Of a DNA stretch of 64,000 nucleotides, positions 3,736-43,772 are shown piece by piece. Under the pieces are notes generated by a model. That model searched no databases, had not been told where the DNA came from, and saw nothing but the letters and a program-made list of their open reading frames with translations. The position numbers and the translations under genes are program-made. This DNA comes from a virus. The stretch covers positions 32,001 through 96,000 of the IMG/VR virus record IMGVR_UViG_3300024239_000016. One strand, written 5' to 3'. The first letter of the stretch is position 1; each line of letters begins with the position of its first letter.

Positions 3736-3741
3736 GCGCTC

Positions 3742-6700: not shown

Positions 6701-8037
6701 TGGCTAAATCGCGGATTTATACCAAGAAAGATATGGGTATTATTTCCGAAGCTAACGTTGACTCAGGCGATGTGGGCGTTAACATCTGGACATCGGCTAA
6801 CCCAAACCTTACCACTATTTACGGTAACACAAAACAGCTGGATGGAGATTACGACCCCACTAAGTTGTTTAGCACAACTACTCTGCTAGCTCCATTCGCT
6901 GAGAATGAAGATATGAAGCGAGCAGTTTTTACGGGAATTCAAAACCAGCACACCGTAGCATGTCACGGGTATAAACCACCACAGGTTCGTACCGGCTATG
7001 AATATGTGATTCCTCATCGAGTCGGTGATCTTTTCTGTACTACAGCTAAACAAGCCGGTGTCGTTGAGTCAGTAACAGATGACGGGATTGTTGTTAAATA
7101 CGCAGACGGTACGGTAAAGGGAGTTCAGCTAGGTCGTGTTTACGGCATTAGTTGCGGTAGTGTCGTGTCTCATTCACTGGTTTCAGAAATGAAACCAGGT
7201 CAGAAGTTCAAAGAAGGGGACGTCATCGCTTACAATAGCAATTTCTTTGCCAAGGATTATTTCGATCCGACAAAAGTGATGTTGAAGTTTAACACCACTG
7301 CAAAGATTGCTCTGTATGAGGCAGCGCTGACAAATGACGATTCCTCAATGATCTCCGTTGAGCTATCTGAGCGTCTGCGTTGCGATACGCCGCACGATCG
7401 CATGGTTGTTGTTAGTTTCCAGGATCATCTATCGAAAGTAGTTGGTGTCGGTACTGAAGTTGAGCCCGATGACATTCTCTGTTACATTAGTCCGAGCGTA
7501 GCCAGCTCAGCGACTGGTATTACAGATCAAGTGGCACTGGATGCCCTTACTGAGTGGAGTAATCAAACACCAACCGCTAAGTACAAAGGACGTATTGAGT
7601 ACATCGAGTGTTTCTATCATGGCGACCTCGAAAACATGTCTGAAACTGTGCGGAAGTTAGCTGAAGCATCTGACCGTCAGCGTAAACAGAAGCAAAAGGC
7701 AGCCGCTATGCCTATCTACTCCAGTATGGTCGATGATTCGTTCCGCAAAGATGGCGAGGCTATCCCCGTGGATAGTATGGTCATCAAGTTTTATATCGCA
7801 AGTAGCGAGCCAGCGGCTGTAGCCGATAAAGTGGTGTATGGTAATCAGTTAAAATCAGTCATTGGTGAAGTGATCAGTGGTGAGATTGTAACTGAGTCTG
7901 GTGTGCAGATTGAGGCTGTCTTCGGCCAGGCATCTATTGATAATCGAATTATTGATAGCTTTCCGCGTATCGGTGCCCTTACTACGCTTCTGAAGCTTAT
8001 CGCTACAAAAACAGTTTCAGCTTACCGTAATCAATAA
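3742..8037 (+). CDS. Virion RNA polymerase beta subunit (phiKZ gp178-like)
   Basis: 1431 aa; TFSGTGGR, ISEANVDSGDVG, EDMKR, DDSS and GNQLKSV beta-type motifs; synteny. Confidence 0.9.
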   Translation: MRDYYQFFFRSVGAWKSELITNPQLHPFEGLQLPRNSAYHILPDGSDSPTPNPNDPILKGWSKPISLLNVHQLAVLDGEPRKLAYDVVSEFNKFLTANNMQFRRMKSLEQVVPDDQALVAISYMAIPRAYYYAQTNYSEWHSYYNLMKTVFQKVEELANNSSRHQFLVFDAPELVPSLELLKYAERSAELERKIVKDFNTPGRRLVLELFKWLGAGYNQNSLFSLISLANLSKVNLILRHKGNFILINLGLLFSWRSAPKTEKEVWEFFGKEAGRGQMPLQYQRWLIRFFAVISKLETPSVDVEKLDAELKAAGEEIIDDASSVPSIANKAGAVTQVNDDMDEEMDDGLLDDRPSTPAEKIDFAITEELEKELERELAVLSRKNDKYGEDEEDIPVTEVAEISDIDAPTIYNAVTRKCDYLADQGVLSAAEYKRHIRLSESFKKIKIDGKPVEDLIKRDPISVALAEPKLIPDAAGVKDKRMLKSSISELNEEYQKRGMLADTVSCIMAIQKAAISVTEIEKDRIDTIMGSSDVYSVRLVPVEGEPSTIKIRVSACNDDGSFVANGTKYRLRRQKADVPIRKISPNEVVLSSYYGPKQFITRGARKNNSYEIWLAAQIRAIGLDENNQTITDLHVGNDFDHDFRCNYTYSVLARNFAGFNLKGFECSFNHKLREERFGAEAIKLYEGDKKHGRLIFGKSKDDQYLIFGTDGLVYIGADKTSRLVGSFEDYVGIEEFSPVERADMRIIDKNIPLGVILSYEMGLETMLKALRVKYDKFEGNIRMMSKSNTHYVLRFKDCCLVIYRDRGRLDMIIGGLMEYDDFLKTRTLREFNKKDIYLPLLESRKLTLRYLTEIDNLYDLFIDPITELNLKRMNEPTTFRGLLLRAVELLLIDWHPTEMDTEYQQLKGNERMAGAIYRELVRSVRRHRSRSDRARAPIELKPHAVWKAIADDSAKLLMDEINPIAHLKEIEAVTFSGTGGRTAETMMAKSRIYTKKDMGIISEANVDSGDVGVNIWTSANPNLTTIYGNTKQLDGDYDPTKLFSTTTLLAPFAENEDMKRAVFTGIQNQHTVACHGYKPPQVRTGYEYVIPHRVGDLFCTTAKQAGVVESVTDDGIVVKYADGTVKGVQLGRVYGISCGSVVSHSLVSEMKPGQKFKEGDVIAYNSNFFAKDYFDPTKVMLKFNTTAKIALYEAALTNDDSSMISVELSERLRCDTPHDRMVVVSFQDHLSKVVGVGTEVEPDDILCYISPSVASSATGITDQVALDALTEWSNQTPTAKYKGRIEYIECFYHGDLENMSETVRKLAEASDRQRKQKQKAAAMPIYSSMVDDSFRKDGEAIPVDSMVIKFYIASSEPAAVADKVVYGNQLKSVIGEVISGEIVTESGVQIEAVFGQASIDNRIIDSFPRIGALTTLLKLIATKTVSAYRNQ

Positions 8038-11621: not shown

Positions 11622-12803
11622 ATGAAACGAAATGCTCCATCTGGTCTATTTACTCCTGATCCACGTACATATGCCTTCTCTCTTGAAGAGGCTCTTCTTG
11701 ATCTTGGTGCTGATTCTCTGGACGGCATTCAAGAGGTAATTGCTGAAATGGACGATGGTCCTGAGCTCACTCCAGAGACCGTTATCTCAGAAGAAGGAAT
11801 CGGAACAGATATCCGTAATGGTTTCGATGATCTCTTCCAGTACCAAGTTCTGCACTGGAAACATTTCCGCGATGTTCAGAATGATTTCTTCTCGGAGACC
11901 AATCCGAAGATAGCCCGCTACAACCAGAAGCTGAATGAAACGTGGCGTGAGTTTCAGGAAAAGAAGCACAAGTTCCGCGATGGAGAGCACCATCTATCAC
12001 TGATGGAGCTGTGGTACTTCTTCTCCAACAAGCAAGGTGCCTCGCGTAATGTGATTCGTGATCTACAGCAAGATACGGAATTCTCCAAGTTTGTCTTGGT
12101 AACCTATCGCAAGGCTGTCATCGATCAACTCTCCGCGCTGGCATCTATCGTTCAAGGAGCACGGCTGCATAGCTTGGCAGATTGCCATAAAGTTATCGAA
12201 GCCATTCAACGCTTGAAAACTATCGATGAGCTTTTCGATGACAAGTGGCTTGGCGAGGGACGTTACTTCAACGTCACTTCAGTTATCAAATCGGCAGGCA
12301 GTGTTGGTAAGGATTTTGAATTCGATGGTAAGTCATACTCGCGCGCCACTGAGCTGAGCTCCGGTGCGCGAGTTGTCGAGAAGAAATCAAAGGGCCATAC
12401 AGCCATGAAAGTTGTTGCTAATGTAACCAACATTGGCGCAGCTATCAAGGGATCATCGATCGCCCCAATGGAAATCTCTACCAATGAAATTGGCGAGATC
12501 ATCATGTTCGGTAAAGATTACGTTGCCAATCTCGATACTGGTCTGGAGCTCAGCAACAGCGCTGAGCGAGCAACCAATGCGCTCATGCGTGGCGTCGAAG
12601 CAATGCGTGGGAGCTCTCACATTCCTGCTGACGATATTCCCGAACTGCGTAAGTTTGTGAAATTCGTTGGTCAGGTTGCGGATAGTTATATTGCCGCGCT
12701 GAAGCAACCATTTGGTGCAGAAGTCATTCGCTCTATCAAAGGAGCCAAGTACTGCTACTACATTGGTCTGCGTTGCATATACAACGCCTCCAAATACATC
12801 TGA
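11622..12803 (+). CDS. Probable internal head protein with protease-cleaved propeptide
   Basis: Acidic N-terminus with S-x-E sites (FSLE, ISEE), the motif cleaved by the phiKZ gp175 protease. Confidence 0.55.
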   Translation: MKRNAPSGLFTPDPRTYAFSLEEALLDLGADSLDGIQEVIAEMDDGPELTPETVISEEGIGTDIRNGFDDLFQYQVLHWKHFRDVQNDFFSETNPKIARYNQKLNETWREFQEKKHKFRDGEHHLSLMELWYFFSNKQGASRNVIRDLQQDTEFSKFVLVTYRKAVIDQLSALASIVQGARLHSLADCHKVIEAIQRLKTIDELFDDKWLGEGRYFNVTSVIKSAGSVGKDFEFDGKSYSRATELSSGARVVEKKSKGHTAMKVVANVTNIGAAIKGSSIAPMEISTNEIGEIIMFGKDYVANLDTGLELSNSAERATNALMRGVEAMRGSSHIPADDIPELRKFVKFVGQVADSYIAALKQPFGAEVIRSIKGAKYCYYIGLRCIYNASKYI

Positions 12804-15228: not shown

Positions 15229-15334
15229 TCCAAGTTTTTTCAAGTATATATTTCATATATGAGTCGTAGCCTGATTTGTACTTCAAGTTACGGTTCGCAG
15301 ATATCTTAAGCCCATTCAAGTCAAGGAGTCTCGC

Positions 15335-18387: not shown

Positions 18388-18388
18388 T

Positions 18389-18895
18389 ATGCCGGAAGTT
18401 CAAATGAAAAAATTACTGGCTCTTAACAAAGGTAGCAAGATGCGAGAAAGCATGCTCGCTTCTGTAATTCGCTCAGCGGTTGCTCTATCTATGAGTTCCG
18501 TAAAAAAGAAATTTTTTCTGTCGCTTAAGTACGGGGAAGAGTTACGTTGGTCAAATGACCTAGCACTGAATATCCGAGCGGAAATCGTCTTTAATCCATT
18601 AGAAAAATCAATTCAGATACATTCCCCATCGATAGATGGGGAATGTATCCCTGTTAAACTTGACATCGGTATCAATACCAGGGGCTTAAATCCATCGTCG
18701 ATCAAAGACGCTCTCTTTGCCGAGTGTATAAATCACGTCATTAAGGTGATTTTTCCAAAAGCCGAAATAAATCTAACCAAAGATAATCTAACTGATTTTC
18801 TTATTCAGCAAATAGAGCACACCTCCCCAGCGAAAATGAGAGAGGATCTTTACATTCGTTTAAGATGGATCAGTAGTAACTGTACATTTTTCTAA
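18389..18895 (+). CDS. Hypothetical protein (start uncertain)
   Basis: ORF in a tightly packed operon. Confidence 0.6.
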   Translation: MPEVQMKKLLALNKGSKMRESMLASVIRSAVALSMSSVKKKFFLSLKYGEELRWSNDLALNIRAEIVFNPLEKSIQIHSPSIDGECIPVKLDIGINTRGLNPSSIKDALFAECINHVIKVIFPKAEINLTKDNLTDFLIQQIEHTSPAKMREDLYIRLRWISSNCTFF

Positions 18896-18917
18896 ATACC
18901 CAACCTGGAGTAAAGAT

Positions 18918-23531: not shown

Positions 23532-24449
23532 ATGTTTTCATTTGAAAAATGGCATACCTCAAAAGAGGTAAATGAGCGTAGCGCAACACAAGTGGTCGGA
23601 GTATCCTCGATAGTTTTTCGCAACTGCAAGAAGCACATCACTTTTTCGCAACAGCTGAACAGCAGTCATTTTGTGCTCCCATTTGTGGATGAAATACCAA
23701 ATGACCTACCGCTAATTAGCGAGCGGATCATCAATGTTTCGATTCCAATGGAAACTGGGGTTTTTAAAAGAACCAGGATTAGTGAGATTGGTATCCAGAT
23801 GAGAGGTTGTATCCTTCGTGAGACAGGGAAATTTTACATCGAAAAACCAAAGCTGTCTTTCATTGATGTTGATTTATCTGGGCATCAGTTAGTTGAGTTC
23901 CTGGAAGCGATGACTGGTTACCTCAAGCCAATGGAATTCACGTTGCGTTGTATTGTCGCGGCTGCGTCAAGTGGCTTGGAGCTATCTGTAGATGAAGCTT
24001 TGCAAAATACCGATCCACTGATAACAGCTGTCATCTGGGATCCTAAGCGCGCTGATCAGGATCCCGGCCTCTATTTGTTTGGCAATGAGCACAACGAGCA
24101 GGTTGAACTGGCTATGGCCCGTTTTATTAAGCGTAATAATGGAAGATGCCCGGTCATGATTGGTTCGCCTAATATGGGCTCGTTAGAAAAGTTTACCTCG
24201 ATTAACGATGAAAAAGTAATAGGACATTTTACAGATGTGCGCAAAGAAGGAAATGTATTCCTTGGTGAGTTAGTAAAATCAAAGGGCACACTAGCGGCGG
24301 CATTACTCGATAAACCACTGCAATCGGAATTTGGTCTACGCACACTATGCAGGCATGTGCTTAACACCAATACAGGTGAAATGGAAAAGCAATTAGTCGA
24401 GATTTTATCAATTGGACTAATTGCCCCACCGAATGAAAAAGGGAATTAA
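23532..24449 (+). CDS. Hypothetical protein
   Basis: RBS AAGGA, 305 aa. Confidence 0.75.
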   Translation: MFSFEKWHTSKEVNERSATQVVGVSSIVFRNCKKHITFSQQLNSSHFVLPFVDEIPNDLPLISERIINVSIPMETGVFKRTRISEIGIQMRGCILRETGKFYIEKPKLSFIDVDLSGHQLVEFLEAMTGYLKPMEFTLRCIVAAASSGLELSVDEALQNTDPLITAVIWDPKRADQDPGLYLFGNEHNEQVELAMARFIKRNNGRCPVMIGSPNMGSLEKFTSINDEKVIGHFTDVRKEGNVFLGELVKSKGTLAAALLDKPLQSEFGLRTLCRHVLNTNTGEMEKQLVEILSIGLIAPPNEKGN

Positions 24450-24508
24450 AGTACGTTCCATCAAAGCAGCAATCGACGATCTACAATCTACCATGAGGAG
24501 ATGTTATC

Positions 24509-25078
24509 ATGAAAGCACAACAAGATTTAATCCGTATCCGTCCGCAAGATCCAGAAAAGCAATATCTAGAGATAGACGAAATGCGCTCTCTGATCAGCAC
24601 CAGTATAATCTCCAAAGACGAAAATTCGTCAGATAGCGACAATATCGCCGATTATCCTCGTGTATTTATCGACGAGTTGTTTTTCATGATCGGTAGCAGT
24701 GTGGTTTGTATGGACGCCGAGATAGAGCTGCCATTGCTATCTGAGCCAACTAATCCACCCGGATTAATGATACCCGTGGCGCACGAGCCATTGGTTGTCT
24801 GTAATCTTACAACAGACGAAGGGTATTCATTTAAAGTGACGTTACAATTCCATTTGTACGTAAATATACCGAAGTGGTTTGGTGGTAAACAGAAACACAA
24901 TGATTGTGATAATTTCTTTGGTATTTCCAGCTCTCCGGTTTGGATTCATCGAGTAGAAGTGATTGGTCCTGTTTTGGAAACAGCGGCGATTGATCTCAGC
25001 TGTCAAATTCTTGGCTATAATCTAGCAGTATTGCGAACACCCAAGAAATCCAATACTGCGCTCATCGCCGACGAGTAG
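24509..25078 (+). CDS. Hypothetical protein
   Basis: RBS GAGGAG, 189 aa. Confidence 0.75.
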   Translation: MKAQQDLIRIRPQDPEKQYLEIDEMRSLISTSIISKDENSSDSDNIADYPRVFIDELFFMIGSSVVCMDAEIELPLLSEPTNPPGLMIPVAHEPLVVCNLTTDEGYSFKVTLQFHLYVNIPKWFGGKQKHNDCDNFFGISSSPVWIHRVEVIGPVLETAAIDLSCQILGYNLAVLRTPKKSNTALIADE

Positions 25079-27240: not shown

Positions 27241-27352
27241 GTCGATATTCTATACATCACTACCGGGCAATGCCCGGTAGTGATGTATTTTTTTATAAAA
27301 ACATATTACTTTACTGATTTCCTACCATTGTTAATTTGGGAGAAGCAAATAC

Positions 27353-27733: not shown

Positions 27734-27779
27734 TGATTTAATTCGCAGCACATTTATGTGATGTAAAGTAACAAACAAA

Positions 27780-28460
27780 GGGCACCTGCTAATAAACTAT
27801 CGGTAGTCAACGTGGCTGGCTATTAGAAATAATACCACGCTGCGATGGCGTAACGATAGAGTCGAAAGAAGCATAAAACATCTATTCATTTTGGCACGCG
27901 TAAAACCTTAAAAAGATAGATGGGTGAATCTGTTCAAAGTCGGCGAATGCTGCGTCCGTTAGGACACGCTAACGCCGAGCCAAAACAAGTTGTCCTATTC
28001 AGCCTAACCTACCTTTAGTCGGATGTACTTGACCGGTAGTATGGCGGGGATGTAAATGCTAGTTCAGGTAAAACACTACGGTGTAACTAGAATCTCGGGA
28101 GAGATCTAAAGACAGGCATTCTTGTGAGGTGTAGAGAGATGATGGACAGGACCTAAGTCTGCTGGCGATGATGTTTGTCGTTAAAACGAAGTTAACTCGA
28201 TAGTGATATGGATAAATTGCCTATCATGATGACCGTGTTAGCGTAAGGAAGCAGATATGGTAAAGGCGATCTCCGGACTACAACAATAGATGGACATGAC
28301 GCGTGCGTTGCGAGACAGCACAAATCACATACATCTCTGATCGTCGTAAGACGATGTAGTGAGTTTCCTTAAACTAAAAGTGCATCCCAGTGCTGGCCTT
28401 ATTAGCATTGCGTAGCCTGACAGCGTAACAGGTTAATTCTAGTTAAAGAAGAAAGTGCTC
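27780..28460 (+). ncRNA. Large structured RNA containing a group I ribozyme core (IC3/Azoarcus-like), copy A
   Basis: P3 CTGTTC 27930-35/GGACAG 28144-49; P4 TCGGCG 27940-45/CGCCGA 27973-78; P6 GCC/GGT; P7 G(A)GAGAT 28134-40/ATCTCC 28269-74; P8 ACC/GGT; P9 ACTACA 28277-82/TGTAGT 28355-60; no ORF. Confidence 0.85.
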
Positions 28461-28498
28461 ATGGATTAATACTAGGTAATCGCATCCATGACAGATGT

Positions 28499-28583
28499 GC
28501 CCAGGTGGCGAAATTGGTAGACGCACCAGATTTAGGTTCTGGCGCCTTCGGGTGTAGGGGTTCGATTCCCCTCTTGGGCACCA
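28499..28583 (+). tRNA. trnL: tRNA-Leu(TAG)
   Basis: Cloverleaf, anticodon arm CCAGA-TTTAGGT-TCTGG, long variable arm, encoded CCA. Confidence 0.95.
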
Positions 28584-28585
28584 AA

Positions 28586-28673
28586 GGAGATATGGCTGAG
28601 TGACTTAAGGTACTCCCCTGCTAAGGGAGCGTACAGAAATGTATCGTTGGCTCGAATCCAACTATCTCCGCCA
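28586..28673 (+). tRNA. trnS: tRNA-Ser(GCT)
   Basis: Anticodon arm CTCCC-CTGCTAA-GGGAG, long variable arm, G73, CCA; the T-loop starts with C. Confidence 0.92.
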
Positions 28674-28696
28674 AGAATTCAATAGTTGTTTTCATT

Positions 28697-29221
28697 GTGA
28701 GGGATCGAATGAAAAATCGTGTCAGTAAATACTTGACTAAGAAGTGCGCTCTGGAACTGCGTATCGTAATTGAGAATTTCAATTACGATAAAATCACCGA
28801 TGTTCAGCACATGACCGGTGTGACCGGTAGGCTTTGGCAAGCAGTTGGCTCGGAATTTGATGCACTCCAGTTAATTTTAATTGATTTTGAGCTGCTCCCA
28901 GATAACAAAACCGAAGCTACCTGCTATATTTTCGTGAGTATCGGCTACAATCCATCTGATGCTCTGCCCGCGTTACATCAGCTCCAGTTGTTTATTGACA
29001 AATACTCAGCGCGACTTGCCGATACAGACGTAACTCCCGCTAAGCTTCGTATGGATGGGGTATCAAAAGCATTTCGCTTACAAGCATCAAAGCGCGCCGA
29101 ATTTTTAGGTGATAAACTTGACGCCTCTATTTTCTTCAATCCTTTGCGTAAGAAAGTGTTGCGTGTCATTGCGGATGTGCACGAAAACTGCACAGGAACT
29201 CTGTGCATTGAGCTAAAGTAA
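28697..29221 (+). CDS. Hypothetical protein between tRNAs (start may be ATG 28709)
   Basis: 174 aa with protein-like composition. Confidence 0.7.
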   Translation: MRDRMKNRVSKYLTKKCALELRIVIENFNYDKITDVQHMTGVTGRLWQAVGSEFDALQLILIDFELLPDNKTEATCYIFVSIGYNPSDALPALHQLQLFIDKYSARLADTDVTPAKLRMDGVSKAFRLQASKRAEFLGDKLDASIFFNPLRKKVLRVIADVHENCTGTLCIELK

Positions 29222-29226
29222 AGACC

Positions 29227-29300
29227 GCCCCCGTAGCATGAAGGTCGTGCAGTTGATTTGTAATCATCAGGTGACAGTTCGATTCTGTCCGGGAGCACCA
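29227..29300 (+). tRNA. trnT: tRNA-Thr(TGT)
   Basis: Anticodon loop TTTGTAA, T-arm GACAG-TTCGATT-CTGTC, CCA; one mismatch each in the acceptor and anticodon stems. Confidence 0.88.
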
Positions 29301-29328
29301 ATTTAAAATTTCAATCAGGAGAATTACC

Positions 29329-29517
29329 ATGTGGCCAGATCCAGCATGGTACTTCGATGATTTAAGTATTTTCAAATACTGGGTAGATCAATTCTATTCG
29401 ATGGCTTGCAAACTCCGCTCCATCTTTAGCTGGCAGGCTGAAGAGGACCCATCCGTTACTGCCATGACGGAAGACGGTAGCAAGCTCGATTGGAAATTAC
29501 CGCCCCTTCGGGGGTAA
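29329..29517 (+). CDS. Possible small ORF (62 aa) embedded in structured RNA
   Basis: RBS AGGAG plus ATG, but enclosed by a 15/16-bp long-range helix. Confidence 0.4.
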   Translation: MWPDPAWYFDDLSIFKYWVDQFYSMACKLRSIFSWQAEEDPSVTAMTEDGSKLDWKLPPLRG

Positions 29518-29790
29518 TCATCAGAGTACCACACAAACCGGAACCAGTTCCTGTACCGGTAGCTTTAAGCTCAATAGCCTCGTAGGAGGGTGAGGGATAG
29601 TTAATGGGCGCTATATCGACTTTGTCGTGATACCCATGAAATCGGTTAGCAGAGCCGATGGGCGACTTCTGTTAGTATCAAGCGTTGAGGCTATGTTCAG
29701 GATTGTATTTGGGCATTCGACCATCTGTTTTAGATGTCTGGTTCGACTCCAGTAATGATACGATCTAGGGATCCCTTGGGTCCCTATTCT
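29330..29790 (+). ncRNA. Candidate structured RNA upstream of tRNA-Leu(TAA)
   Basis: Helices 29347-62/29516-31 and 29574-81/29687-94; T-arm-like CTGG-TTCGACT-CCAG at 29738-52. Confidence 0.5.
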
Positions 29791-29834
29791 AAAGTGATTT
29801 ATTTTACAATTATTTTAGAATAGTAAACTTTAAT

Positions 29835-29919
29835 CCGCGGGTGGCGAAATTGGTAGACGCATGAGACTTAAAATCTCACACCGAAAGGTATATGGGTTCG
29901 ACTCCCATACCGCGGACCA
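29835..29919 (+). tRNA. trnL: tRNA-Leu(TAA), intron-less
   Basis: Anticodon arm TGAGA-CTTAAAA-TCTCA, variable arm, T-arm, CCA. Confidence 0.93.
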
Positions 29920-29950
29920 TATCTTCTTAATCAACGAAAGAAAGAAAATT

Positions 29951-30298
29951 ATGTCACGTAAAGAACATAAAGGTCAAAAATTCGATCTTGCTTACGGCGT
30001 AGATCGCTATAGTGGGGCTTTCGTTCAGCTCTTCCAATCTCCGATGGACGATCAAGATGGCGCTTTCCTCAACGTGGATTCCCACGGAGTGCGTCTCGAT
30101 GAAGATCATCCCGAACTGCCCACTGAGCTCACCAAAGTGATCTCGGGGCTGAAATTGGCTTTCTGCCGTTATAAGGAAGCTCACAACGATAATCCGAATC
30201 TCTCGGTCGATCATGTGCTGCATGTTGCCCGCGCAGCTGATCAATTCGATACCTTCTCGGAAAAAGAAGTGTATCAGGTCTTTGGCGATAACGCTTGA
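29951..30298 (+). CDS. Hypothetical protein
   Basis: ATG 29951; the ORF-track start lies inside the tRNA. Confidence 0.75.
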   Translation: MSRKEHKGQKFDLAYGVDRYSGAFVQLFQSPMDDQDGAFLNVDSHGVRLDEDHPELPTELTKVISGLKLAFCRYKEAHNDNPNLSVDHVLHVARAADQFDTFSEKEVYQVFGDNA

Positions 30299-30309
30299 AA
30301 AAAAAAAAG

Positions 30310-30877
30310 CATGTGCTCGCTATTGTCTGAATAGTAAAGAAAGCACGGACTTACTGAGTCCGATAGTGAGGCAGTCCTGCATTGTCGTCAGATCAAGGCC
30401 TATTCATGATAGGTACAGTTTGACATCAGACTCTGGCAGTTAGGCTGATCAGAAGTGGAGCCGTGATAGTTCCGGATTTCGCAAAACCCTCAGATTACTT
30501 CTGTGGTCAGATGCGAGAGATGATGGAGTACCAGTGTCGAAGAGTGTGCGAGGGTGAACCTAGCGCTCTTAAACGGTCGACTAAATCAGAACTGATATTT
30601 GGCTATCGGCGATGAGGATTGGTTTAGAATCATGCCAATGTTCGAAATCCAAGTTCAAGGAGTTTATTGGGTAGTGATGAGAGAACTATCCTAGATACGT
30701 TTTCTCATCACTAGAACAGACGACATCCAGGCGAAACTGGGTTAAGTGAACTAGACCCACCAATCCATAGCACATAGGTGAATACGCACTCCCTTAGGTC
30801 TAGAGTGTCAGTAGTTCGCGCGGACTACCTCGACAGCATCGCCCTTGCAAAGCGGTGCTGTCCTGGAAGTGCGCATG
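30310..30877 (+). ncRNA. Large (about 570 nt) structured RNA directly upstream of tRNA-Pro
   Basis: Terminal helix CATGTGC 30310-16/GCGCATG 30871-77; 15-bp stem 30672-86/30699-713; stems 30616-23/30759-66 and 30832-42/30852-62; no credible ORF. Confidence 0.7.
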
Positions 30878-30884
30878 AAATTGT

Positions 30885-30961
30885 CCGTTCGTAGCGCAGC
30901 CTGGTAGCGCATCTGTTTTGGGAACAGAGGGTCGCAAGTTCGAATTTTGCCGGGCGGACCA
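30885..30961 (+). tRNA. trnP: tRNA-Pro(TGG)
   Basis: Anticodon arm TCTGT-TTTGGGA-ACAGA, C1-G72, A73, CCA. Confidence 0.95.
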
Positions 30962-30985
30962 TTCTTATTTTACCAAGAGGTAATC

Positions 30986-31228
30986 ATGCAATCAAACCAT
31001 AAAAAAGATGGCGTTGAAGCAATAAAAGAGCTGATCAAAGAAGTATGGAATACGCTCAAACGGCTTATCGAAGACTGTTTCATTAAACTGATGCAAAAGC
31101 ACATCAGGTGCTCTAGCAAAAAGAATTGGGTAGCGCGCAGCTCAAGTATTTTTTCTTTGGGCGACCGCAAATTACTTGGCATCAGGCGACATACCCCTGA
31201 TCGTTGGCTAGGTTATATTCGGAATTAG
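30986..31228 (+). CDS. Hypothetical protein
   Basis: RBS GAGGT, ATG 30986. Confidence 0.65.
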   Translation: MQSNHKKDGVEAIKELIKEVWNTLKRLIEDCFIKLMQKHIRCSSKKNWVARSSSIFSLGDRKLLGIRRHTPDRWLGYIRN

Positions 31229-31249
31229 TAACATTGGGAGCGGTGTAAC

Positions 31250-31675
31250 ATGAATCTTCATTTCACATCCCCTAGCGTTGGGAGCGATGTATGGATTGTC
31301 AAGGAGGATAAAATCCTTGGCACTGGCGCTGTAGTGGGATTTGATGGACAAGATCGACTGAGTGTGATGTTAAAAGACGCTGCAGCGAACGATCTACTTC
31401 CTCTGACTACCGATGACTTAAAAAGCATTGGTTATGGTTATTTATTTATCGGCTATGATGCGAATACGTGCGATTTACATCGTAATCAGGCAATAGTCGA
31501 TCTTATCAAAGATGACAGCCCTCTAATTGGCACTTCCATTGTTGATAAATTTAAACTCCGCTATGGTCTTGTTAACGACCGTTTCAAAAATGTCCCTGGT
31601 TATCGCGAAGCGTGCATCATGGAAGTCGGCCAGTCATTGACTGAACTACCCCAGAGGTCCTGTGATGGTGCGTAG
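31250..31675 (+). CDS. Hypothetical protein
   Basis: RBS GGAG, 141 aa. Confidence 0.75.
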   Translation: MNLHFTSPSVGSDVWIVKEDKILGTGAVVGFDGQDRLSVMLKDAAANDLLPLTTDDLKSIGYGYLFIGYDANTCDLHRNQAIVDLIKDDSPLIGTSIVDKFKLRYGLVNDRFKNVPGYREACIMEVGQSLTELPQRSCDGA

Positions 31676-32219
31676 AATATTTCAGAGCAGGGATTTACCG
31701 TGGCGTCAGCGTGTTACAATTGTTGTTGTCAACGATAACGGGAATGTCCTCATCGCTAATCAGCCCCCGTTACCGCCTTATAACGAAAAAATGCTGACCC
31801 TACCTGGAGGCGGCATTGAGCCAGGACAGACTCCAGAAGAGGCAGTAGCAGCTGAGCTTCTTGAAGAGGTTGGCGTCAAAGTAAGCGGCATTCAGGTACT
31901 TGACTGTCATACATTCGAAGAGCCGTTTACCGTGCTAAAGCCAGGAGAAGGTACCCCAGTTCAAATCGAGCGTCGCAAGTTGTTTAAAGGCGTACAATCT
32001 GTTGCTTATTTTGCCAAGTTCGAACGCACCATCAATGGTGGTAAAGGCACTGGCAATGATGCAATGGAATGGGAATGGTATCCGTTCCATAGGGCTACTG
32101 GAATAATGCTCGCTCAGCGTGCCCTGGCAATTAAAACTGGAAGAAATGGAAAGCTCCATATGTTCATGGCAGACGCGATCAGGGTCGCTAAAGACCATTT
32201 TTATAAAATAGAAAGCTAA
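31662..32219 (+). CDS. Nudix hydrolase with a divergent Nudix box
   Basis: LPGGGIEPGQTPEEAVAAELLEEVG. Confidence 0.85.
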   Translation: MMVRRIFQSRDLPWRQRVTIVVVNDNGNVLIANQPPLPPYNEKMLTLPGGGIEPGQTPEEAVAAELLEEVGVKVSGIQVLDCHTFEEPFTVLKPGEGTPVQIERRKLFKGVQSVAYFAKFERTINGGKGTGNDAMEWEWYPFHRATGIMLAQRALAIKTGRNGKLHMFMADAIRVAKDHFYKIES

Positions 32220-32249
32220 ACTGCTCGCTAGTATGAGCGGGTGAAGCTT

Positions 32250-33230
32250 CAATTAGGGCATTACCGAAAAATACGCTGGTAGTAGTGAAGAGATTCTTGT
32301 ATCGATGACAGATAGCTGTCGGTATTTCCGTGTCATGGCGGATAGATCAGCGAGTACTTTACACGGAACAGCGTAACCGAAAGGCGGTAAAACAACACCA
32401 TGAAAGCGGACATCCGCGCGCACATGTGTAGTACCGGTCATACAGACCGGAACGAGCTACTCTGACGCGATGGAAAAAATGGGCTGCCATAGTGGAGAAC
32501 TCTTAGTAGTGTTTAGGATAGCTGTGAGACAATGAAGCTCAGTCGCCAGGTTGAGTGGAGTCATCCTTGAAATAGCAGCCATAAACGGAGTTCAGTTGAA
32601 TGCAGTGTGATGAATCGTACGCCGCGTGGCCAGGCGATGAAATCACATTCCTCGGAAAGTCGGCGAATGTTTGATGTGTAAGGCCGTTGGGTCTCCGTGA
32701 GAGCGGAGACTGGAACAAGGTGAAACGGCGTTGAGTCGTCAGTGCTAAACTAACGAACAACGAGGCTGGGTCGAAAGATGCCGCTTACTGGATGTTCGAA
32801 TCGTCCCACAATACTAACGCCGAGCCAAGTCTGTGTGATCCGTAATGGGAAAATCGCCTCTGTAAAAAAGTCCAGTGTGCGAGGATGCTGTTGCGAACTA
32901 TCAGAAAGGTGTAGAGAGTAGACCCGAGGGACCTAAAACAATTTGTCGATAATAGCTATTGGATCACTTCATCGCGCGCCGCGGGGTGTTGGTCTAGTAA
33001 CAGGTAGCTTAGATGGGTTGTCATGGTAGAGGCGTATTCCAGACCACAAACAAAATCAGGGCTCCTAAAGAAAGAGTAACGCCTGTTTCTGGTAGTGAAA
33101 ACTATAGTGGTAGGCTTCCTAAGCCTGTATCTCCTGTTCTAGACATAGGGGATGGTTTCTTCAATAGAAGCAGTACCACGAGATAATATCGGTATTCTTA
33201 GATACTATCGTAAAACTCGTGCACAAAGAG
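32250..33230 (+). ncRNA. Very large structured RNA containing a group I ribozyme core (IC3/Azoarcus-like), copy C; ends approximate
   Basis: P3 CCTCGG 32650-55/CCGAGG 32924-29; P4 TCGGCG 32660-65/CGCCGA 32818-23; P6 GCC/GGT; P7 G(A)GAGTA 32914-20/TATTCC 33035-40; P8 ACC/GGT plus ACAATTT/GGGTTGT; P9 ACCAC 33043-47/GTGGT 33107-11; no ORF. Confidence 0.87.
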
Positions 33231-33237
33231 TTCAGTA

Positions 33238-33325
33238 GGGGGTTTGGCAGAGCGGTCGATTGCACTGGTCTTGAAAACCAGCGATGGGAAACCATCCGTG
33301 AGTTCGAATCTCACAGCCCCCGCCA
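33238..33325 (+). tRNA. trnS: tRNA-Ser(TGA)
   Basis: Anticodon arm CTGGT-CTTGAAA-ACCAG, long variable arm, G73, CCA. Confidence 0.96.
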
Positions 33326-33330
33326 ACAAA

Positions 33331-33875
33331 GGAGATCTGATTGCGAAGTCTTGGTCGTAAAGTTTTAATTCTTACGGCCTCGTGTCTTTTGGCAGCTACG
33401 TTTCCTCTTATCGTTTTTGGATTAAGCAACAAAGCTCAATCTGTCGTATGCTTACCGTCCCAGTTAGTAGGACTGGATAACAGTAGTTCAGTACGGAAAG
33501 CAGATAGCTGGTTAAGTGATGTTGATGAACAATCGGCACGCCTTGCCGATCCGCAGCGCCCTATCAGCGCATATAACCCAAATCGCCTAAGAGCTAATGC
33601 AAGACATGGTAAGGGACCATGAGTCTGCACCCAAACTACACCAGGTCACGTGTAAACACTCACAAACAAATACCACTCGTGTGGTAGAGCGTTAGAAGCT
33701 AAAGCTATGGTAGCCGAAGATGATTGTGGATCGTACATCGAACATAATTCCTGATCAGAGTTACGATCGATAAGATGCGACCATTGAAGACTCAGAGCCA
33801 ACCAACGATTACGCTATAAAGAAGCAAAGGATTTATCCGAGCGCACTGTGTCGCATTAAAGGTGGATCCGACAGT
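33331..33875 (+). ncRNA. Candidate large structured RNA directly downstream of tRNA-Ser(TGA)
   Basis: Long-range pairs 33352-59/33776-83, 33406-13/33768-75 and 33382-88/33601-07; many local hairpins; followed by a 13-bp hairpin at 33881-33910. Confidence 0.55.
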
Positions 33876-33975
33876 TTCAATTGCAGACTGAGAAAGCTCT
33901 CAGTCTGCAATCCAGTTTGTATCTTACCGTGTACCAACTGGATTGCACGACTGTGTAAAAGTTAGATAGAGATAA

Positions 33976-34185
33976 ATGCCAAAATTTACTTTACATCAGT
34001 ATAAATTAGTCAATTGCTCTTTAGCTAAAGCTCTTGGCGACAACAGCGCTAAAACCGTAATTGACCTTGCAAGAGGTCGAGTGTGCCCAATTTGCCATAA
34101 TTATAAAAATGGCGGATGCGCGGCTTCTCGTAAATTGTTGGAGTTAAGAATGAACAAAAAAATTAACGACGAGATCCCACTGTAG
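33976..34185 (+). CDS. Small hypothetical protein with CxxC
   Basis: 69 aa, CPIC. Confidence 0.5.
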   Translation: MPKFTLHQYKLVNCSLAKALGDNSAKTVIDLARGRVCPICHNYKNGGCAASRKLLELRMNKKINDEIPL

Positions 34186-34241
34186 CGTTCAGCGAGAATG
34201 CCAAAAGATAGTCTTTTGGACGCTGAGCGCGGGAGAGAATC

Positions 34242-34496
34242 TTGTCCAGATCACTGCGTGTGTATAAAACCAAAGTTAAGAAATTGGCTAGGTTAAAAAG
34301 GATTACTGCCAAGAGTTACGCTGCCATCGGTTTTGTAAAGGTAAACGTTCTGTTACAGACTCCTAAAATCTGTAGTTGTCATATGTGCGGCAATGCAAGA
34401 AAGCACTATAGGCGCCGCACGCTTAAAGAAGAGCGCGACCTTGTTGATTACAAGGAGCAGCTTAAGAGCCTTTCGTTGATCCCTTCCTACAGGTAG
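34242..34496 (+). CDS. Small basic protein with TPK-x-CSCxMCGNxRK motif
   Basis: Motif recognised from small phage/bacterial proteins; TTG start after GGGAG. Confidence 0.65.
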   Translation: MSRSLRVYKTKVKKLARLKRITAKSYAAIGFVKVNVLLQTPKICSCHMCGNARKHYRRRTLKEERDLVDYKEQLKSLSLIPSYR

Positions 34497-34499
34497 ACT

Positions 34500-34805
34500 A
34501 ACTTGGGTGATTGTAGGAGTAGCCCAAAAATAAGCCGTAACAAGCTGGGAAGAAAACCCAGTACCATTTTAGCGAATGGTGAGGAGTGTTACGGAGCCAT
34601 GATGAGTTATTTTAACCAACGACCAATCAGGATTCTCGAATCTAAATGCGACATATGGCCTTAGTGACATCATAGCGGCTGACCACTCGGCAATATATGG
34701 CTGGCCGGCCCGGTCCCTGGCGCGATCCGCGAGTGCTCGCGGATATCCGCCGCTGCCGACTTGTTGCAAATAGATGGATCCAGATGTAACTCAATATTGG
34801 TGTAC
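34500..34805 (+). ncRNA. Candidate structured RNA (about 300 nt)
   Basis: Stems 34535-42/34587-94, 34604-10/34786-92 and 34687-92/34754-59, hairpin 34725-44; followed by terminator hairpin 34808-31. Confidence 0.5.
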
Positions 34806-34911
34806 CGCAGCACGCCCCTAGGGGCGTGCTGTAGTTAATTTATTTTTTATTTATTTTAGAAAATTCTTTTATTAATTTTTAATAAAAGAATCTTTTATAA
34901 GGAACAAAATC

Positions 34912-35757
34912 ATGGGAAAAGAAGCTAATGTGACTAAGCCACTAGCTGTTATAATTAAAGGTAACCCAAAGTACCTTGATAAGAAAGAAATCAAACCAAT
35001 CGCCGATGAATTTTACAAGACAGTAAAAAATCTTCTTGAAGAACAAGGCTTCCATGTAACCTTTGACAGTGGCGAGGATTTCACCAAACCGGATATTGCT
35101 GCCAAGGTATGGGTAGCGCATTCGCGTGGAATTGGAAGATTACAATATGCACCGGATCATATCAAAACCGTAGCTTTAGATACCAAAAATGGAAAAGATG
35201 GCACTGACCCAAAGCATTATCAGCTTTCTTCTAAGGATATAAAAAACCTCAATAGTTTAAAAGAAGAACCCTCGTCCGGTACGGTGCCATTGACATTAAA
35301 TCTTCTCGACGAATACATCAAGTTCAGGCAACAATCGCATAAAGAGAGCGATTATGTGAACGCTCTCTCGAAAAATGATGCTGTGAAACAAATCAGTGAG
35401 CAAAACAAGGACAACAAAACAGCTCTAGTTGCTCTGAAGGACGGAGAAATTGTCGGTCAGCTATTTGTTACTGCGCCGACTAAAAAACGCAATATAGCGA
35501 TCATCAATCTGATCTCGGTTCTAGAATCTGAGCAAGGAACCGGATTAGCGCATCGTTTGATGAAGAAAGCTATCTGGATCGCGGAAGACGCTGATTGCGA
35601 CAAACTTCAGCTGATTGTCAATAATAAAAATGAAAAGGCAATCAAGTTTTACAAAAAACACAATTTCAAGCCAATTAACAATTACTCAACTCGCGCCACT
35701 ACTTATGAACTCGATCTTCCTTATGATCGAGACTTAGGCGATCACGAATACAGATAA
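34912..35757 (+). CDS. Two-domain protein: small alpha/beta-hydrolase-like N-terminus plus GNAT acetyltransferase C-terminus
   Basis: AHSRG elbow-like motif; V..SEQGTGLAHRLM (acetyl-CoA motif A) and N.KAIKFYKKHNF. Confidence 0.75.
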   Translation: MGKEANVTKPLAVIIKGNPKYLDKKEIKPIADEFYKTVKNLLEEQGFHVTFDSGEDFTKPDIAAKVWVAHSRGIGRLQYAPDHIKTVALDTKNGKDGTDPKHYQLSSKDIKNLNSLKEEPSSGTVPLTLNLLDEYIKFRQQSHKESDYVNALSKNDAVKQISEQNKDNKTALVALKDGEIVGQLFVTAPTKKRNIAIINLISVLESEQGTGLAHRLMKKAIWIAEDADCDKLQLIVNNKNEKAIKFYKKHNFKPINNYSTRATTYELDLPYDRDLGDHEYR

Positions 35758-35760
35758 GCT

Positions 35761-36075
35761 ATGAAAAACGCACAGAAAATACACACGACAACAGCTGAAG
35801 AAATAAAAGCAGCTGTAATAGCGGCAGGGGTAAGTTCAACCAAATTAAGGGAATGTAGCATCTGTGGAACGAAGTTATTTTATTCGTTTGATCAAGAAGT
35901 AATTAGAAACTCCGATGAGAAGGGAGTCTTCTTCACATCAGAATGTGAGTGCACTTCTTTCGGAGTTGCTCCGCAGCCAAGAACGTGGGAAGATATCGCG
36001 TTTTTGATTAATTTACAAATCACCACCGAGAACTACAATAAGGCTCGCCAACTCTTTTTCTTAGATCCAATCTAA
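35761..36075 (+). CDS. Hypothetical protein, possible Zn ligands (CSIC, CEC)
   Basis: 104 aa. Confidence 0.7.
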   Translation: MKNAQKIHTTTAEEIKAAVIAAGVSSTKLRECSICGTKLFYSFDQEVIRNSDEKGVFFTSECECTSFGVAPQPRTWEDIAFLINLQITTENYNKARQLFFLDPI

Positions 36076-36153
36076 ACTCACCATCATGAAAATCAAATTC
36101 TATCAAAACTACGACTCGGATTAAATATTTTAATTAATCCGGGGAGTATCCAG

Positions 36154-36528
36154 ATGTCCAGAACCGTTCGTAGGAAGAACTTGGCTTATTTGTACAATCG
36201 TTATGTCGAAAACATCGATTGCATTTATGTTATCGGTAACGTTATTTACATTAAGCGCGACTGGCGGTTTGAGCTGTGTGAGGTCATGAAGCTCAATCGC
36301 ATCAACATGTCCGATCCGGATGCCTACGTCGCGTGCGAGCGCGCTCGCTTTCATTCGGACGCCAGGCGTATCAGCAGTCGCGAAAAGCCCAATAAATTTG
36401 GTCGCAAATACCTGCAACGCAGTTATCGTAACTATGTCAAAAATGCTATTCGCAATGCCGTTAAAACTGATCTGGAGAACTATCCTGTCATTCCGCGACG
36501 CTACATCTGCGCTGGCTACTTTGACTGA
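36154..36528 (+). CDS. Basic hypothetical protein (MSRTVRRK start)
   Basis: RBS GGGGAG, 124 aa. Confidence 0.75.
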   Translation: MSRTVRRKNLAYLYNRYVENIDCIYVIGNVIYIKRDWRFELCEVMKLNRINMSDPDAYVACERARFHSDARRISSREKPNKFGRKYLQRSYRNYVKNAIRNAVKTDLENYPVIPRRYICAGYFD

Positions 36529-36574
36529 CAGTAAAGGAAATGTGTTTAAGATTTTTTTGAACATATATTTCTAT

Positions 36575-37240
36575 TATGAGTTCGGCCAAGTTTCATAGTC
36601 TGAATTCATTCCCGGTACTAACTTACCGTGAGATCGTAACGATCGGGTTGGAGTCGTATAATCGAGCACCTGTACCGCGCCGGGGAATCCTCTCGAGGAT
36701 ATACTCGCCGCATCGACATAATCGGCGCCTTGTAGTATTGGCCCCGACAGTCTGAGAAACACATCCGCGTAACTTCGGGTGGAGTTTACTTTACGTGGTT
36801 TTTTACTCGATGAATGCTTGTAGAATTGATGCGTTGTAAAGGACAAATCTTTTTAAACGATTACAAGCTCGACGGAGTCGGTTGCCCTACACTGACTCCG
36901 AGACAATAGATGCAGTAGGGATGGCTAGTTTCGCTAGGTCTGATTAAGGCGAGCGAAAGGTGGAGTGCAGATTTTTAGCAGATAGGTGTCGCGACCGACC
37001 CGTTAAATTTTTGCGCGTAGAAGCCCATAGTCAGCACCGCCGCCATCCGGGTGATGGCAAAAGTTAGATTGCAATTTTATCGAAAACACGCTCGTAGGCT
37101 GACATCACGTCGATCTGCTCTGCGTCGGTGTAAACAGCCGTGCAATCAGTTAGTAGCTCGCGATAGCTACCGTCTGGGTCGTGTGTGGAAACACGATCCT
37201 TTCGATAGTTCTTGCGTAAGGGGTACATCCCCTGTTTTAC
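36575..37240 (+). ncRNA. Candidate large structured RNA(s) with an H-type pseudoknot
   Basis: 10-bp stem 36873-82/36891-900 whose loop CCCTAC 36885-90 pairs with GTAGGG 36915-20; nested stems AGCAGAT/ATCTGCT, ACCGAC/GTCGGT and GTCAGC/GCTGAC. Confidence 0.6.
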
Positions 37241-37272
37241 ACACCTCCCTTCGGGGAGGTGTGTATTTTTTT
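37238..37272 (+). terminator. Intrinsic terminator
   Basis: TACACACCTCCC-TTCG-GGGAGGTGTGTA followed by a T-run. Confidence 0.9.
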
Positions 37273-37297
37273 ATGCTGTTTAATTTAAGGAGACAAA

Positions 37298-43181: not shown

Positions 43182-43301
43182 AATATACATACCAGGCCAA
43201 TGGGCCTGGTATGTATTTAAATTTATTGTACTTACATATTACGACCATGAGAGCAATGTATTCTCTCATATTCTTTTAATTTCTCTAGGAAACTAGCCGT
43301 C

Positions 43302-43772
43302 ATGGAAACAGTACCAGAAGTAGAAGAAGTTCCAAAAGTAGCAAAACCGATGCCGTGGGACTGGATGGACCTGACAGAAAATGCTCTTAATCGAGCATTG
43401 ACTGGATTCAATCTTTCCTGTCAAAAGAAAATCAGCGCGCCGTTCGAATCGGTCGAAGAAGAAAAATTCTATTACTATCTCCTCGGCCGCAACAGCGTCC
43501 AATCGTGGGATTTGCGCAAACCCTACATCATCACCTCTGGGCTACTGACTGATCAGACTCTGGCTTCAAGTCCAGCCCAGCATCGGCGTGTACCCGATGC
43601 AAGGAAGGAAGCAGAGCGTCTTTCCAAGAAGCACAAAGACACTCCCTTCTATATCTGGGGTGCAGTCGGTGCGTATGTCAATGGCCAAGCCGTGCAGTTC
43701 TCACCAGCACTACATCAGTTCCAGCTTCAATCAACGACCAACCAGGACGATGACAATGAGACCAATCTTTGA
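43302..43772 (+). CDS. Hypothetical protein
   Basis: 156 aa, CATATTAC upstream. Confidence 0.7.
   Translation: METVPEVEEVPKVAKPMPWDWMDLTENALNRALTGFNLSCQKKISAPFESVEEEKFYYYLLGRNSVQSWDLRKPYIITSGLLTDQTLASSPAQHRRVPDARKEAERLSKKHKDTPFYIWGAVGAYVNGQAVQFSPALHQFQLQSTTNQDDDNETNL

Follow-up and report, generated by a model that had tools for sequence, protein, structure and literature searches.

Two orphan group I ribozymes of the tRNA-intron lineage in a viral tRNA island

Group I ribozymes are textbook selfish introns that are rendered harmless through splicing. Among their best-known bacterial forms are the IC3 introns of tRNA genes, such as those of cyanobacterial tRNA-Leu(UAA), Azoarcus tRNA-Ile and Agrobacterium tRNA-Arg(CCU). 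Here we describe two group I ribozymes, A and D, in the tRNA island of a virus, within bases 32001-96000 of the 194,227-bp IMG/VR virus record IMGVR_UViG_3300024239_000016. This 64-kb stretch is called the window; position numbers are window positions, and genome-wide counts refer to the whole 194-kb record. A and D resemble the IC3 introns in the order and sequence of the P3-P9 blocks, the P3/P7 pseudoknot, a GNRA-capped P9, a terminal G and a guide placed just 5' of P2 (which in those introns makes a short P1 of 3-5 bp). Unlike those introns, they have no tRNA exons, and their anticodon-arm-like hairpin is intact and located past the terminal G, not split to either side of the ribozyme. Moreover, A has no partner at a 5' splice site, and D is extended to ~870 nt by P2.1, P5 and L1-stalk-like extensions.

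The closest functional analogue known to us of the reaction proposed below for A and D is that of the lariat-capping ribozyme GIR1 of Didymium and Naegleria, a group-I-derived, non-splicing ribozyme that cuts 3' of its core by the terminal-G position and makes the 5' end of the downstream RNA. GIR1 is eukaryotic, lacks P1, has a rearranged core and carries out a branching reaction, whereas A and D have a guide and a core of standard IC3 form, and the Rfam GIR1 model did not match them in scans with all families. The c-di-GMP-II-controlled group I ribozyme in the 5' untranslated region (UTR) of a Clostridioides difficile gene likewise lies in a leader RNA and matures the downstream message with no gene repair, but no riboswitch aptamer was detected by Rfam in A or D, and the genes downstream of them encode tRNAs. 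GOLLD and ROOL RNAs share the setting, being large structured RNAs in phage tRNA clusters, but match A and D neither in sequence nor in structure. Finally, D contains a domain like the ribosomal L1 stalk (helices H76-H78 of 23S rRNA), which contacts the tRNA elbow and binds protein uL1 in the ribosome, although in D this module sits in a ribozyme and not in rRNA.

Two group I cores that interrupt no gene

Each of the two, A and D, is a complete group I ribozyme and belongs to the bacterial tRNA-intron (IC3-like) lineage (Table 1). Four sequence blocks (GUCGGCGAAUG, CUAACGCCGAGCCAA, GGUGUAGAGAG and GGACCUAA) are common to both in the same order, and the conserved group I blocks of A and D are all present in order in phage tRNA introns. 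When viral and metagenome contigs were scanned for patterns of these blocks, the search recovered ~54 distinct relatives (labelled with L and a number), most of which split a tRNA at the anticodon loop; the host exons that could be read directly belong to tRNA-Leu(UAA), tRNA-Met(CAU) and tRNA-Arg(UCU). Because they split tRNAs at this position, the relatives belong to the bacterial tRNA-intron type of group I introns. A and D descend from introns of bacterial and phage tRNA anticodon loops, of the tRNA-Arg and tRNA-Leu type.

Helix-by-helix comparison was based on an alignment (A2) of 15 sequences, comprising A, D and 13 relatives. Over the 22 pairs of P3, P4, P7 and P9, 97% of cells are paired, compared with 27-43% when partners are slid; 14 of these pairs are changed on both sides, and none of 500 shuffles matched the observed values. 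Both ribozymes have private compensated versions of P3 (CUGUUC/GGACAG in A, CCUCGG/CCGAGG in D) and of P7 (GAGAU/AUCUC in A and GAGUA/UAUUC in D, the usual form being GACUA/UAGUC). All 54 invariant columns of A2 are retained in A and D, as are the conserved nucleotides of the joining and active-site regions J3/4, P4', J6/7-P7 and P7'-J7/9 and the canonical order of P3, P4, P7 and P9, including the P3/P7 pseudoknot. R1, a covariance model for the 3' half built from 11 relatives with A and D left out, gave two matches only on the 64-kb window, namely D (96 bits, E 7.6e-20) and A (25.6 bits, E 2.5e-4, positions 28120-28368), and nhmmer searches of the whole genome with hidden Markov models (HMMs) of the blocks also returned A and D only. 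Guanosine-dependent self-cleavage or splicing activity is predicted for both. A P1 for A pairing U27790 with G27802 was considered and rejected, because in the alignment with tRNA-hosted relatives this stretch falls in the conserved P2/P2.1 domain and the guide lies at 27780-27783.

Neither A nor D interrupts a gene; they sit in spacers, 135 nt (A) and 124 nt (D) upstream of tRNA genes. ARAGORN detected no tRNA halves flanking either of them, including at lowered threshold, D is preceded by a complete Nudix gene, flanking ORFs in general are complete or unrelated, and none of the frames that follow the terminal G of A stays open for more than 16 codons. As there are no ligatable host exons, we class A and D as group I ribozymes rather than gene introns. 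The usual site of their relatives is tRNA-Leu(UAA), and the tRNA-Leu(UAA) of this virus itself is uninterrupted. About 30 of the relatives are tRNA-hosted, in anticodon loops, and 11 others are orphans like A and D (L037, L038, L039, L041, L043, L044, L045, L046, L080, L081 and L093). The orphans stand directly before tRNA genes or ribosome-binding sites. Flanking direct repeats, considered as possible target duplications, were not significant in 11 of the 13 orphans.

Three other relatives have unusual arrangements. On the minus strand of L054, a second group I 5' domain, with a GGGUC guide, P2, GAAAAAU and GGUAGU, begins a few bases past the terminal G of the first (reverse-strand position 1096), so that the two form tandem ribozymes. 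In L040, a 250-kb phage contig, tRNA-Arg(UCU) is split by a group I intron, the P5 extension of which contains a tRNA-like gene (6921-6987; Rfam tRNA, 34 bits), and L019 has a similar tRNA-like insert in the P2.1 region.

Guide and 3' hairpin of the orphan ribozymes

In tRNA-hosted members, the three nucleotides just 5' of the C/U preceding P2 pair, as read by eye, with the last three nucleotides of the exon (for example GAG with CUU, GUG with CAU and GGU with ACU). This guide position was checked by eye on at least seven tRNA-hosted relatives, in which the splice site is fixed by tRNA anatomy. In all 13 orphans, a hairpin of 4-6 bp begins at the terminal-G position, and its loop complements the guide. 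The orphans fall into three classes, with guide GGG and loop CCU(U/A) in A, D, L044 and L045, guide GGU and loop ACUU in L037, L039, L041 and L043, and guide GCC and loop GGU(U/A) in L038, L046, L080, L081 and L093; within a class, the hairpin stems vary in sequence but remain paired. Exon ligation requires the terminal G, whereas the first step of splicing does not; this G is replaced in three of the 13 orphans and in none of the ~30 tRNA-hosted members. Guide/loop covariation across 13 members, selective loss of the terminal G and an L1-stalk-like domain in such a ribozyme were not found reported in the literature searched.

Because guide and loop are complementary in all 13 orphans, we infer that the hairpin loop is the substrate of the ribozyme. 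In the mechanism that we propose, the 3-nt guide beside P2 (GGG in A and D) would pair with the CCU loop of the hairpin at the ribozyme's own terminal G, and the guanosine cofactor would attack after the loop U. The cut would separate the ribozyme and everything upstream of it from the downstream tRNA precursor and add a G to the new 5' end, such that first-step chemistry would serve RNA processing and not exon ligation. D might alternatively splice in the conventional way through its upstream P1 (GCUU/GGGC). Judged from sequence, we put the probability at roughly 0.5 that this explanation is correct as a whole, i.e. that A and D are orphan group I ribozymes that process RNA in this way, that the remaining segments of the island are spacers or UTRs and that the island represents a cluster of tRNAs and small genes, transcribed rightward in long units, in a distant phiKZ-like jumbo phage with a multisubunit RNA polymerase.

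A and D might instead be ordinary self-splicing introns, selfish or neutral, that reside in spacers and use an upstream P1, the 3' hairpin being merely the start of the 3' exon. In favour of this reading, D has a canonical P1 hairpin, the same GCUU...GGGC is found in L045, L037, L039 and L041 have possible upstream guide partners, and the terminal G is kept in both A and D. However, no upstream partner for the guide of A was found within 60 nt, and three orphans lack the terminal G. Ordinary introns would also give no reason for the complementarity of loop and guide in 13 of 13 orphans and in three covarying classes, and neither a homing endonuclease gene nor a host gene function is there to keep the core intact. 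Overall, we regard ordinary splicing as unlikely, though it deserves to be taken seriously.

The flanks of D contain traces of a tRNA. The arm over its terminal G (UAGGC-UUCCUAA-GCCUG) has a perfect 5-bp stem and a 7-nt loop, ARAGORN at a 90% threshold calls a pseudo tRNA-Arg(CCU) at 33083-33156 that rests on this arm, and the upstream flank has a D-arm-like GCUC-GCUAGUAU-GAGC, a faint tRNA trace. These remnants, together with the strong divergence of A (25.6 bits) and the loss of the terminal G from some orphans, would fit decaying relics of intron-bearing tRNA-Arg or tRNA-Leu genes with eroded exons and a catalytically dead or irrelevant core. Yet the invariant core columns are all kept and each helix difference is compensated, two diverged copies persist in a genome with a median spacer of otherwise 64 nt, and orphans of the same architecture, their hairpin stems covarying, are present in 11 or more other contigs. 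In addition, GGU is unlike the 5' side of a normal anticodon loop, which indirectly suggests that the orphans are not pure relics. A relic origin of this kind thus appears improbable.

Several observations weigh against the processing mechanism or against parts of the explanation in which it is embedded. A scores far below D with R1, and the Rfam group I model RF00028 matched neither A nor D at E ≤ 10. RF00028 also misses every tRNA-hosted relative, however, and its test is therefore uninformative for this lineage. D and L045 have canonical upstream P1 candidates, and conventional splicing of a non-coding spacer may be the alternative for these two; in several orphans, guide-complementary triplets occur upstream within 30 nt, at about chance frequency. 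Unless the hairpin opens, a loop of 3-4 nt would be a sterically difficult partner for a 3-bp P1. The three guide/loop classes may in part represent three origins with inherited complementarity rather than ongoing selection, and the loss of the terminal G from three orphans may equally mark decay. With respect to the L1-stalk-like domain, the match of D to the ribosomal large-subunit (LSU) model was at the gathering threshold and was not reproduced on smaller stretches. For segments B, C, E, F and G of the island, stability is the sole support for stable non-coding RNAs (ncRNAs).

An L1-stalk-like domain in ribozyme D

Inserted between P2.1 and P3 of D is a domain with the L1-stalk-like fold, i.e. 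the helices H76, H77 and H78 together with their conserved unpaired nucleotides. Positions 2135-2206 of the Rfam model for bacterial LSU rRNA match D over 32510-32581 (50.4 bits, E 5e-12). When D is aligned with E. coli rrlH, the unpaired motifs UAGGAUAG, GAAG, CGCCAG, UGGAG and CCUUGAAAUA are identical and the differences in helices are compensated. The predicted fold shared by D, two other phage RNAs (L053 and L101) and E. coli has 20 pairs, 13 of which show compensatory changes, and for the domain nhmmer gave E 1e-9 to L053 and 1e-5 to 23S rRNA. Recent capture from host rRNA was considered and rejected, since no bacterial species representative has the H76 variant of D and no blastn match was found in E. 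coli genomes. In the literature searched, no paper links L1-stalk-like modules to group I introns.

The module also occurs in a second setting and a third. In L053 (12176-13030), from another phage population, tRNA-Leu(UAA) is split by a large group I intron that carries it, and the same is true of L062, L079 and L090; in these four it is inserted at a different place from that in D, at the end of the P6 extension and just 5' of P7. In a 295-kb jumbo-phage contig (L101), a 470-nt ORF-free spacer (3557-4028; ORF, open reading frame) ~600 nt upstream of tRNA-Leu(UAA) has the P2.1-like motif GGUAGU...GCGUAA and the module (3903-3988) and no group I core.

Such modules hold tRNA elbows in the L1 stalk, in RNase P and in T-box RNAs. 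By analogy, the domain may be a docking site for a tRNA elbow, that of the cis tRNA in the case of L053 and of a neighbouring or free tRNA (in trans) in that of D, or it may bind uL1. If it does dock tRNA elbows, this would be a fourth natural use of elbow docking, after the ribosome, RNase P and T-box RNAs, would extend a universal tRNA-recognition device to self-splicing RNAs and would offer a structural entry point to the positioning of the anticodon loop by tRNA introns.

Another possibility is that D, and perhaps A, act in trans, with a tRNA of the host or the phage held at its elbow by the domain, the GGG guide paired with a CCU in the anticodon loop of this tRNA and the tRNA cleaved or remodelled as a result. 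Conservation of the domain in three phage RNAs that adjoin tRNA genes and the imitation of an anticodon arm by the cis hairpin would both be in keeping with such a role, as would the elbow-holding modules just mentioned. Within the guide class of D, though, A, L044 and L045 lack the domain, a 3-nt guide provides little specificity, no target was identified, and the domain could equally bind uL1 or the tRNA in cis. Action in trans therefore seems very improbable to us.

The cis mechanism can be stated more broadly for all the orphans. They may be a distinct functional class of phage RNA-processing enzymes that use the first, guanosine-dependent step only, cut a hairpin loop complementary to the guide at their own 3' end and mature the 5' ends of downstream tRNA precursors or mRNAs, some of them, like D, with a recruited L1-stalk-like module that grips the tRNA elbow. 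We advance this generalization tentatively and think it less than likely. If true, a recurrent exon-less class would change the selfish-intron picture, in that phages would have repurposed the fold as an RNA-processing tool much as eukaryotes have GIR1. As the Rfam group I model misses the whole lineage, such elements are currently unannotated in jumbo-phage genomes.

The tRNA island and its other segments

A first-pass annotation had described this region as an RNA island in which seven long structured non-coding segments, ORF-poor over some 4 kb, are interleaved with six tRNAs, and had proposed that tRNA processing releases large phage ncRNAs from it. The six tRNA genes were found by both ARAGORN and Rfam, and there are no others in the 194-kb genome. 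The seven ORF-poor blocks (A-G in Table 1) also held up, with a combined length of ~4.2 kb. By a crude greedy codon-usage gene call over the whole genome (log-likelihood trained on 91 long ORFs, real genes scoring ~0.22-0.24 per codon), 7 of the 24 gaps of at least 250 nt lie within the island's 9.5 kb, which is 4.9% of the genome, and the median spacer elsewhere is 64 nt. ORFs inside the blocks matched no PHROG or Pfam family, and a protein-coding explanation for the blocks was rejected on that basis. Five segments do lie close to tRNA ends, A, B, C and D abutting tRNA 5' ends and E following a tRNA 3' end.

Table 1. Positions of the ribozyme elements, tRNA genes and ORF-poor blocks of the island
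Feature	Position	Strand	Evidence or remarks
Ribozyme A, orphan group I	27780-28363	+	block alignment, covariation, R1, nhmmer blocks
A guide (internal guide sequence) GGGC	27780-27783	+	
A P2/P2.1 domain	27786-27874	+	GGUAGU...GCGUAAC motif
A P3	27930-35 with 28144-49	+	
A P4	27940-45 with 27973-78	+	
A P7	28136-40 with 28269-73	+	
A P9	28340-55	+	
A terminal G	28363	+	aligns with terminal G of tRNA-hosted relatives
A hairpin AGUUU-CCUU-AAACU, from terminal G	28362-28375	+	read from sequence; loop CCU complements guide GGG
Tail of 123 nt, hairpin of A to tRNA-Leu(UAG)	28376-28498	+	no homologue
Ribozyme D, orphan group I, ~870 nt	32246-33113 (from guide: 32256)	+	R1, covariation
D candidate P1, GCUU/GGGC, 6-nt loop	GCUU 32246-49 with guide 32256-59	+	
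D P2/P2.1	32260-32393	+	
D L1-stalk-like domain, mimic of 23S rRNA H76-H78	32510-32585	+	inserted between P2.1 and P3
D P3	32650-55 with 32924-29	+	
D P4	32660-65 with 32818-23	+	encloses ~150-nt P5 extension
D P7	32916-20 with 33035-39	+	
D P9	33091-33107	+	
D terminal G	33113	+	aligns with terminal G of tRNA-hosted relatives
D anticodon-arm-like hairpin over terminal G	33111-33127	+	loop CCU complements guide GGG
tRNA-Leu(UAG)	28499-28583	+	ARAGORN, Rfam
tRNA-Ser(GCU)	28586-28673	+	ARAGORN, Rfam
tRNA-Thr(UGU)	29227-29300	+	ARAGORN, Rfam
tRNA-Leu(UAA)	29835-29919	+	ARAGORN, Rfam; intact, no intron
tRNA-Pro(UGG)	30885-30961	+	ARAGORN, Rfam
tRNA-Ser(UGA)	33238-33325	+	ARAGORN, Rfam; 124 nt past terminal G of D
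Block A	27734-28498		
Block B	29518-29834	+	weak tRNA-like 3' element, T-arm CUGG-UUCGACU-CCAG near 29737-29751; hairpin 29761-29782; promoter-like motif 29797-29820
Block C	30299-30884	+	586 nt, ORF-free, z −5.9 and −5.25; ends 1 nt before tRNA-Pro
Block D	32220-33237		
Block E	33623-33975	+	two strong hairpins 33880-33945; z −4.2
Block F	34497-34911	+	~310-nt fold, then intrinsic terminator 34807-34832, then promoter-like motif 34838-34861
Block G	36530-37297	+	promoter-like motif TTTTTTTGAACATATATTTC 36552-36571; ~690 nt without plus-strand ORF; terminator 37238-37265

Two of the segment starts given in that annotation fall on plausible small genes. The segment at 29330 begins with an ORF that has a good ribosome-binding site (29329-29517), and the one at 33331 begins with ORF 33341-33622, the codon score of which is weak (0.035 per codon). 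The N-terminus encoded by the latter resembles a signal peptide by eye and it has no family match; its product may be a small secreted or membrane protein.

All seven blocks fold more stably than dinucleotide shuffles, with z-scores of −2.4 to −6.8, compared with −0.3 to −1.9 for five coding controls. However, of nine long spacers located outside the island, five also reach z-scores of −3.2 to −6.0, and stability alone therefore does not set the island apart; the richness in long stems that had been pointed out is real relative to coding sequence but is not a special trait, as other long spacers reach −5 to −6. Other ORF-free spacers of 400-530 nt, at 18388-18917 and 43182-43587 and at genome positions 6810-7297 and 24095-24584, are folded as stably as the island segments (z −4.9 to −6.0).

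Strong plus-strand terminators at 27252-27288, 34807-34832 and 37238-37265 bracket two transcription units. The long spacers of the genome are alike in sequence only in two promoter-like motifs. The first, TTTTTT..AA.TATATATT(T/A)C, has three plus-strand copies (window 36552-36571 and 15235-15254, and genome 7235, i.e. window −24765) and resembles the AT-rich early promoters of phiKZ-like phages. The second, the AT-rich ATTTATTTT..ATT(T)ATTTTAGAA, has copies at 29797-29820 and 34838-34861.

No homologues of B, C, E, F or G were found in DNA searches of phages and of phage tRNA-island DNA, and these segments are best read as structured spacers or UTRs with promoters, terminators and hairpins. 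The tRNA-like element of B is called by ARAGORN at lowered threshold only, and the folding of B is marginal (z −2.6 or −0.37 depending on its bounds). F has z-scores of −6.8 and −4.7 and a minimum-free-energy structure near the centroid structure; it is probably a structured 3' UTR. In G, a 54-aa ORF on the minus strand (37064-37228) has a coding-like score but no real homologue, matching only repeats in giant proteins, and is doubtful. Two other identities for G were rejected: a third diverged group I core, hinted at by CUGACUCCGAGACAA and CAUAGUCAGCACC, is unsupported by the block HMMs and the covariance model, and a tRNA-Val with a 301-nt intron called by ARAGORN has a poor acceptor and poor arms and was read as spurious.

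C and G are the sole candidates for further ncRNAs, C being the best remaining one. Rfam models did not match C at E ≤ 10, and 754 kb of DNA from phage tRNA islands yielded no homologue of it. Its long-range 7-bp pseudoknot pairs were discarded as evidence, since by our own estimate ~10 would arise by chance in 586 nt. Near its 5' end (30346-30362), CGGAC-UUACUGA-GUCCG can fold into an arm of 5 bp with a loop of 7 nt, as in an anticodon arm, possibly by chance.

Should all seven segments be large, stable ncRNAs of the GOLLD/ROOL kind, freed by RNase P and 3' trimming of the tRNAs, their position next to tRNA ends (A-E) would be explained, as would the good folding of the ORF-free C, F and G and the occurrence of both a promoter-like motif and a terminator in G. 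Nevertheless, Rfam scans of the island with the models for HEARO, transfer-messenger RNA (tmRNA), RNase P, riboswitches and small ribozymes gave no match at gathering score or E ≤ 10; GOLLD had none either, and the best ROOL match (E 0.35) was located elsewhere in the genome. The two segments that could be identified are group I ribozymes and not GOLLD-, ROOL- or theta-type RNAs, the z-scores of the others are equalled by ordinary long spacers, they have no homologues, and B is marginal. We consider a set of seven such ncRNAs improbable. What survives of the proposed RNA island is that A and D are large structured RNAs upstream of tRNAs, with the covariation among relatives expected of them (in the group I core, over 13 relatives), whereas B, C, E, F and G show only thermodynamic stability. 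Given that A and D carry their own cleavage chemistry, as predicted, and a 3' hairpin matched to the guide, their release need not depend on RNase P as punctuation.

Large ORFs of the genome match beta subunits of phiKZ-type multisubunit RNA polymerases and virion proteins, with the nearest cultured phages only ~37% identical on the multisubunit polymerase. For all seven segments, megablast and blastn against phages gave no close DNA relatives, and searches with a neighbouring 500-aa protein gave none among viral contigs or 5.8 billion protein clusters; for want of close kin, comparative tests on close relatives are impossible. ARAGORN found no tmRNA, and lowering its threshold gave noise only. 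L011, a 156-kb viral contig, has a permuted tmRNA gene (12137-12508; Rfam 83.5 bits; ARAGORN tag ANDSIFEQRLAA) at the end of a 15-tRNA array.

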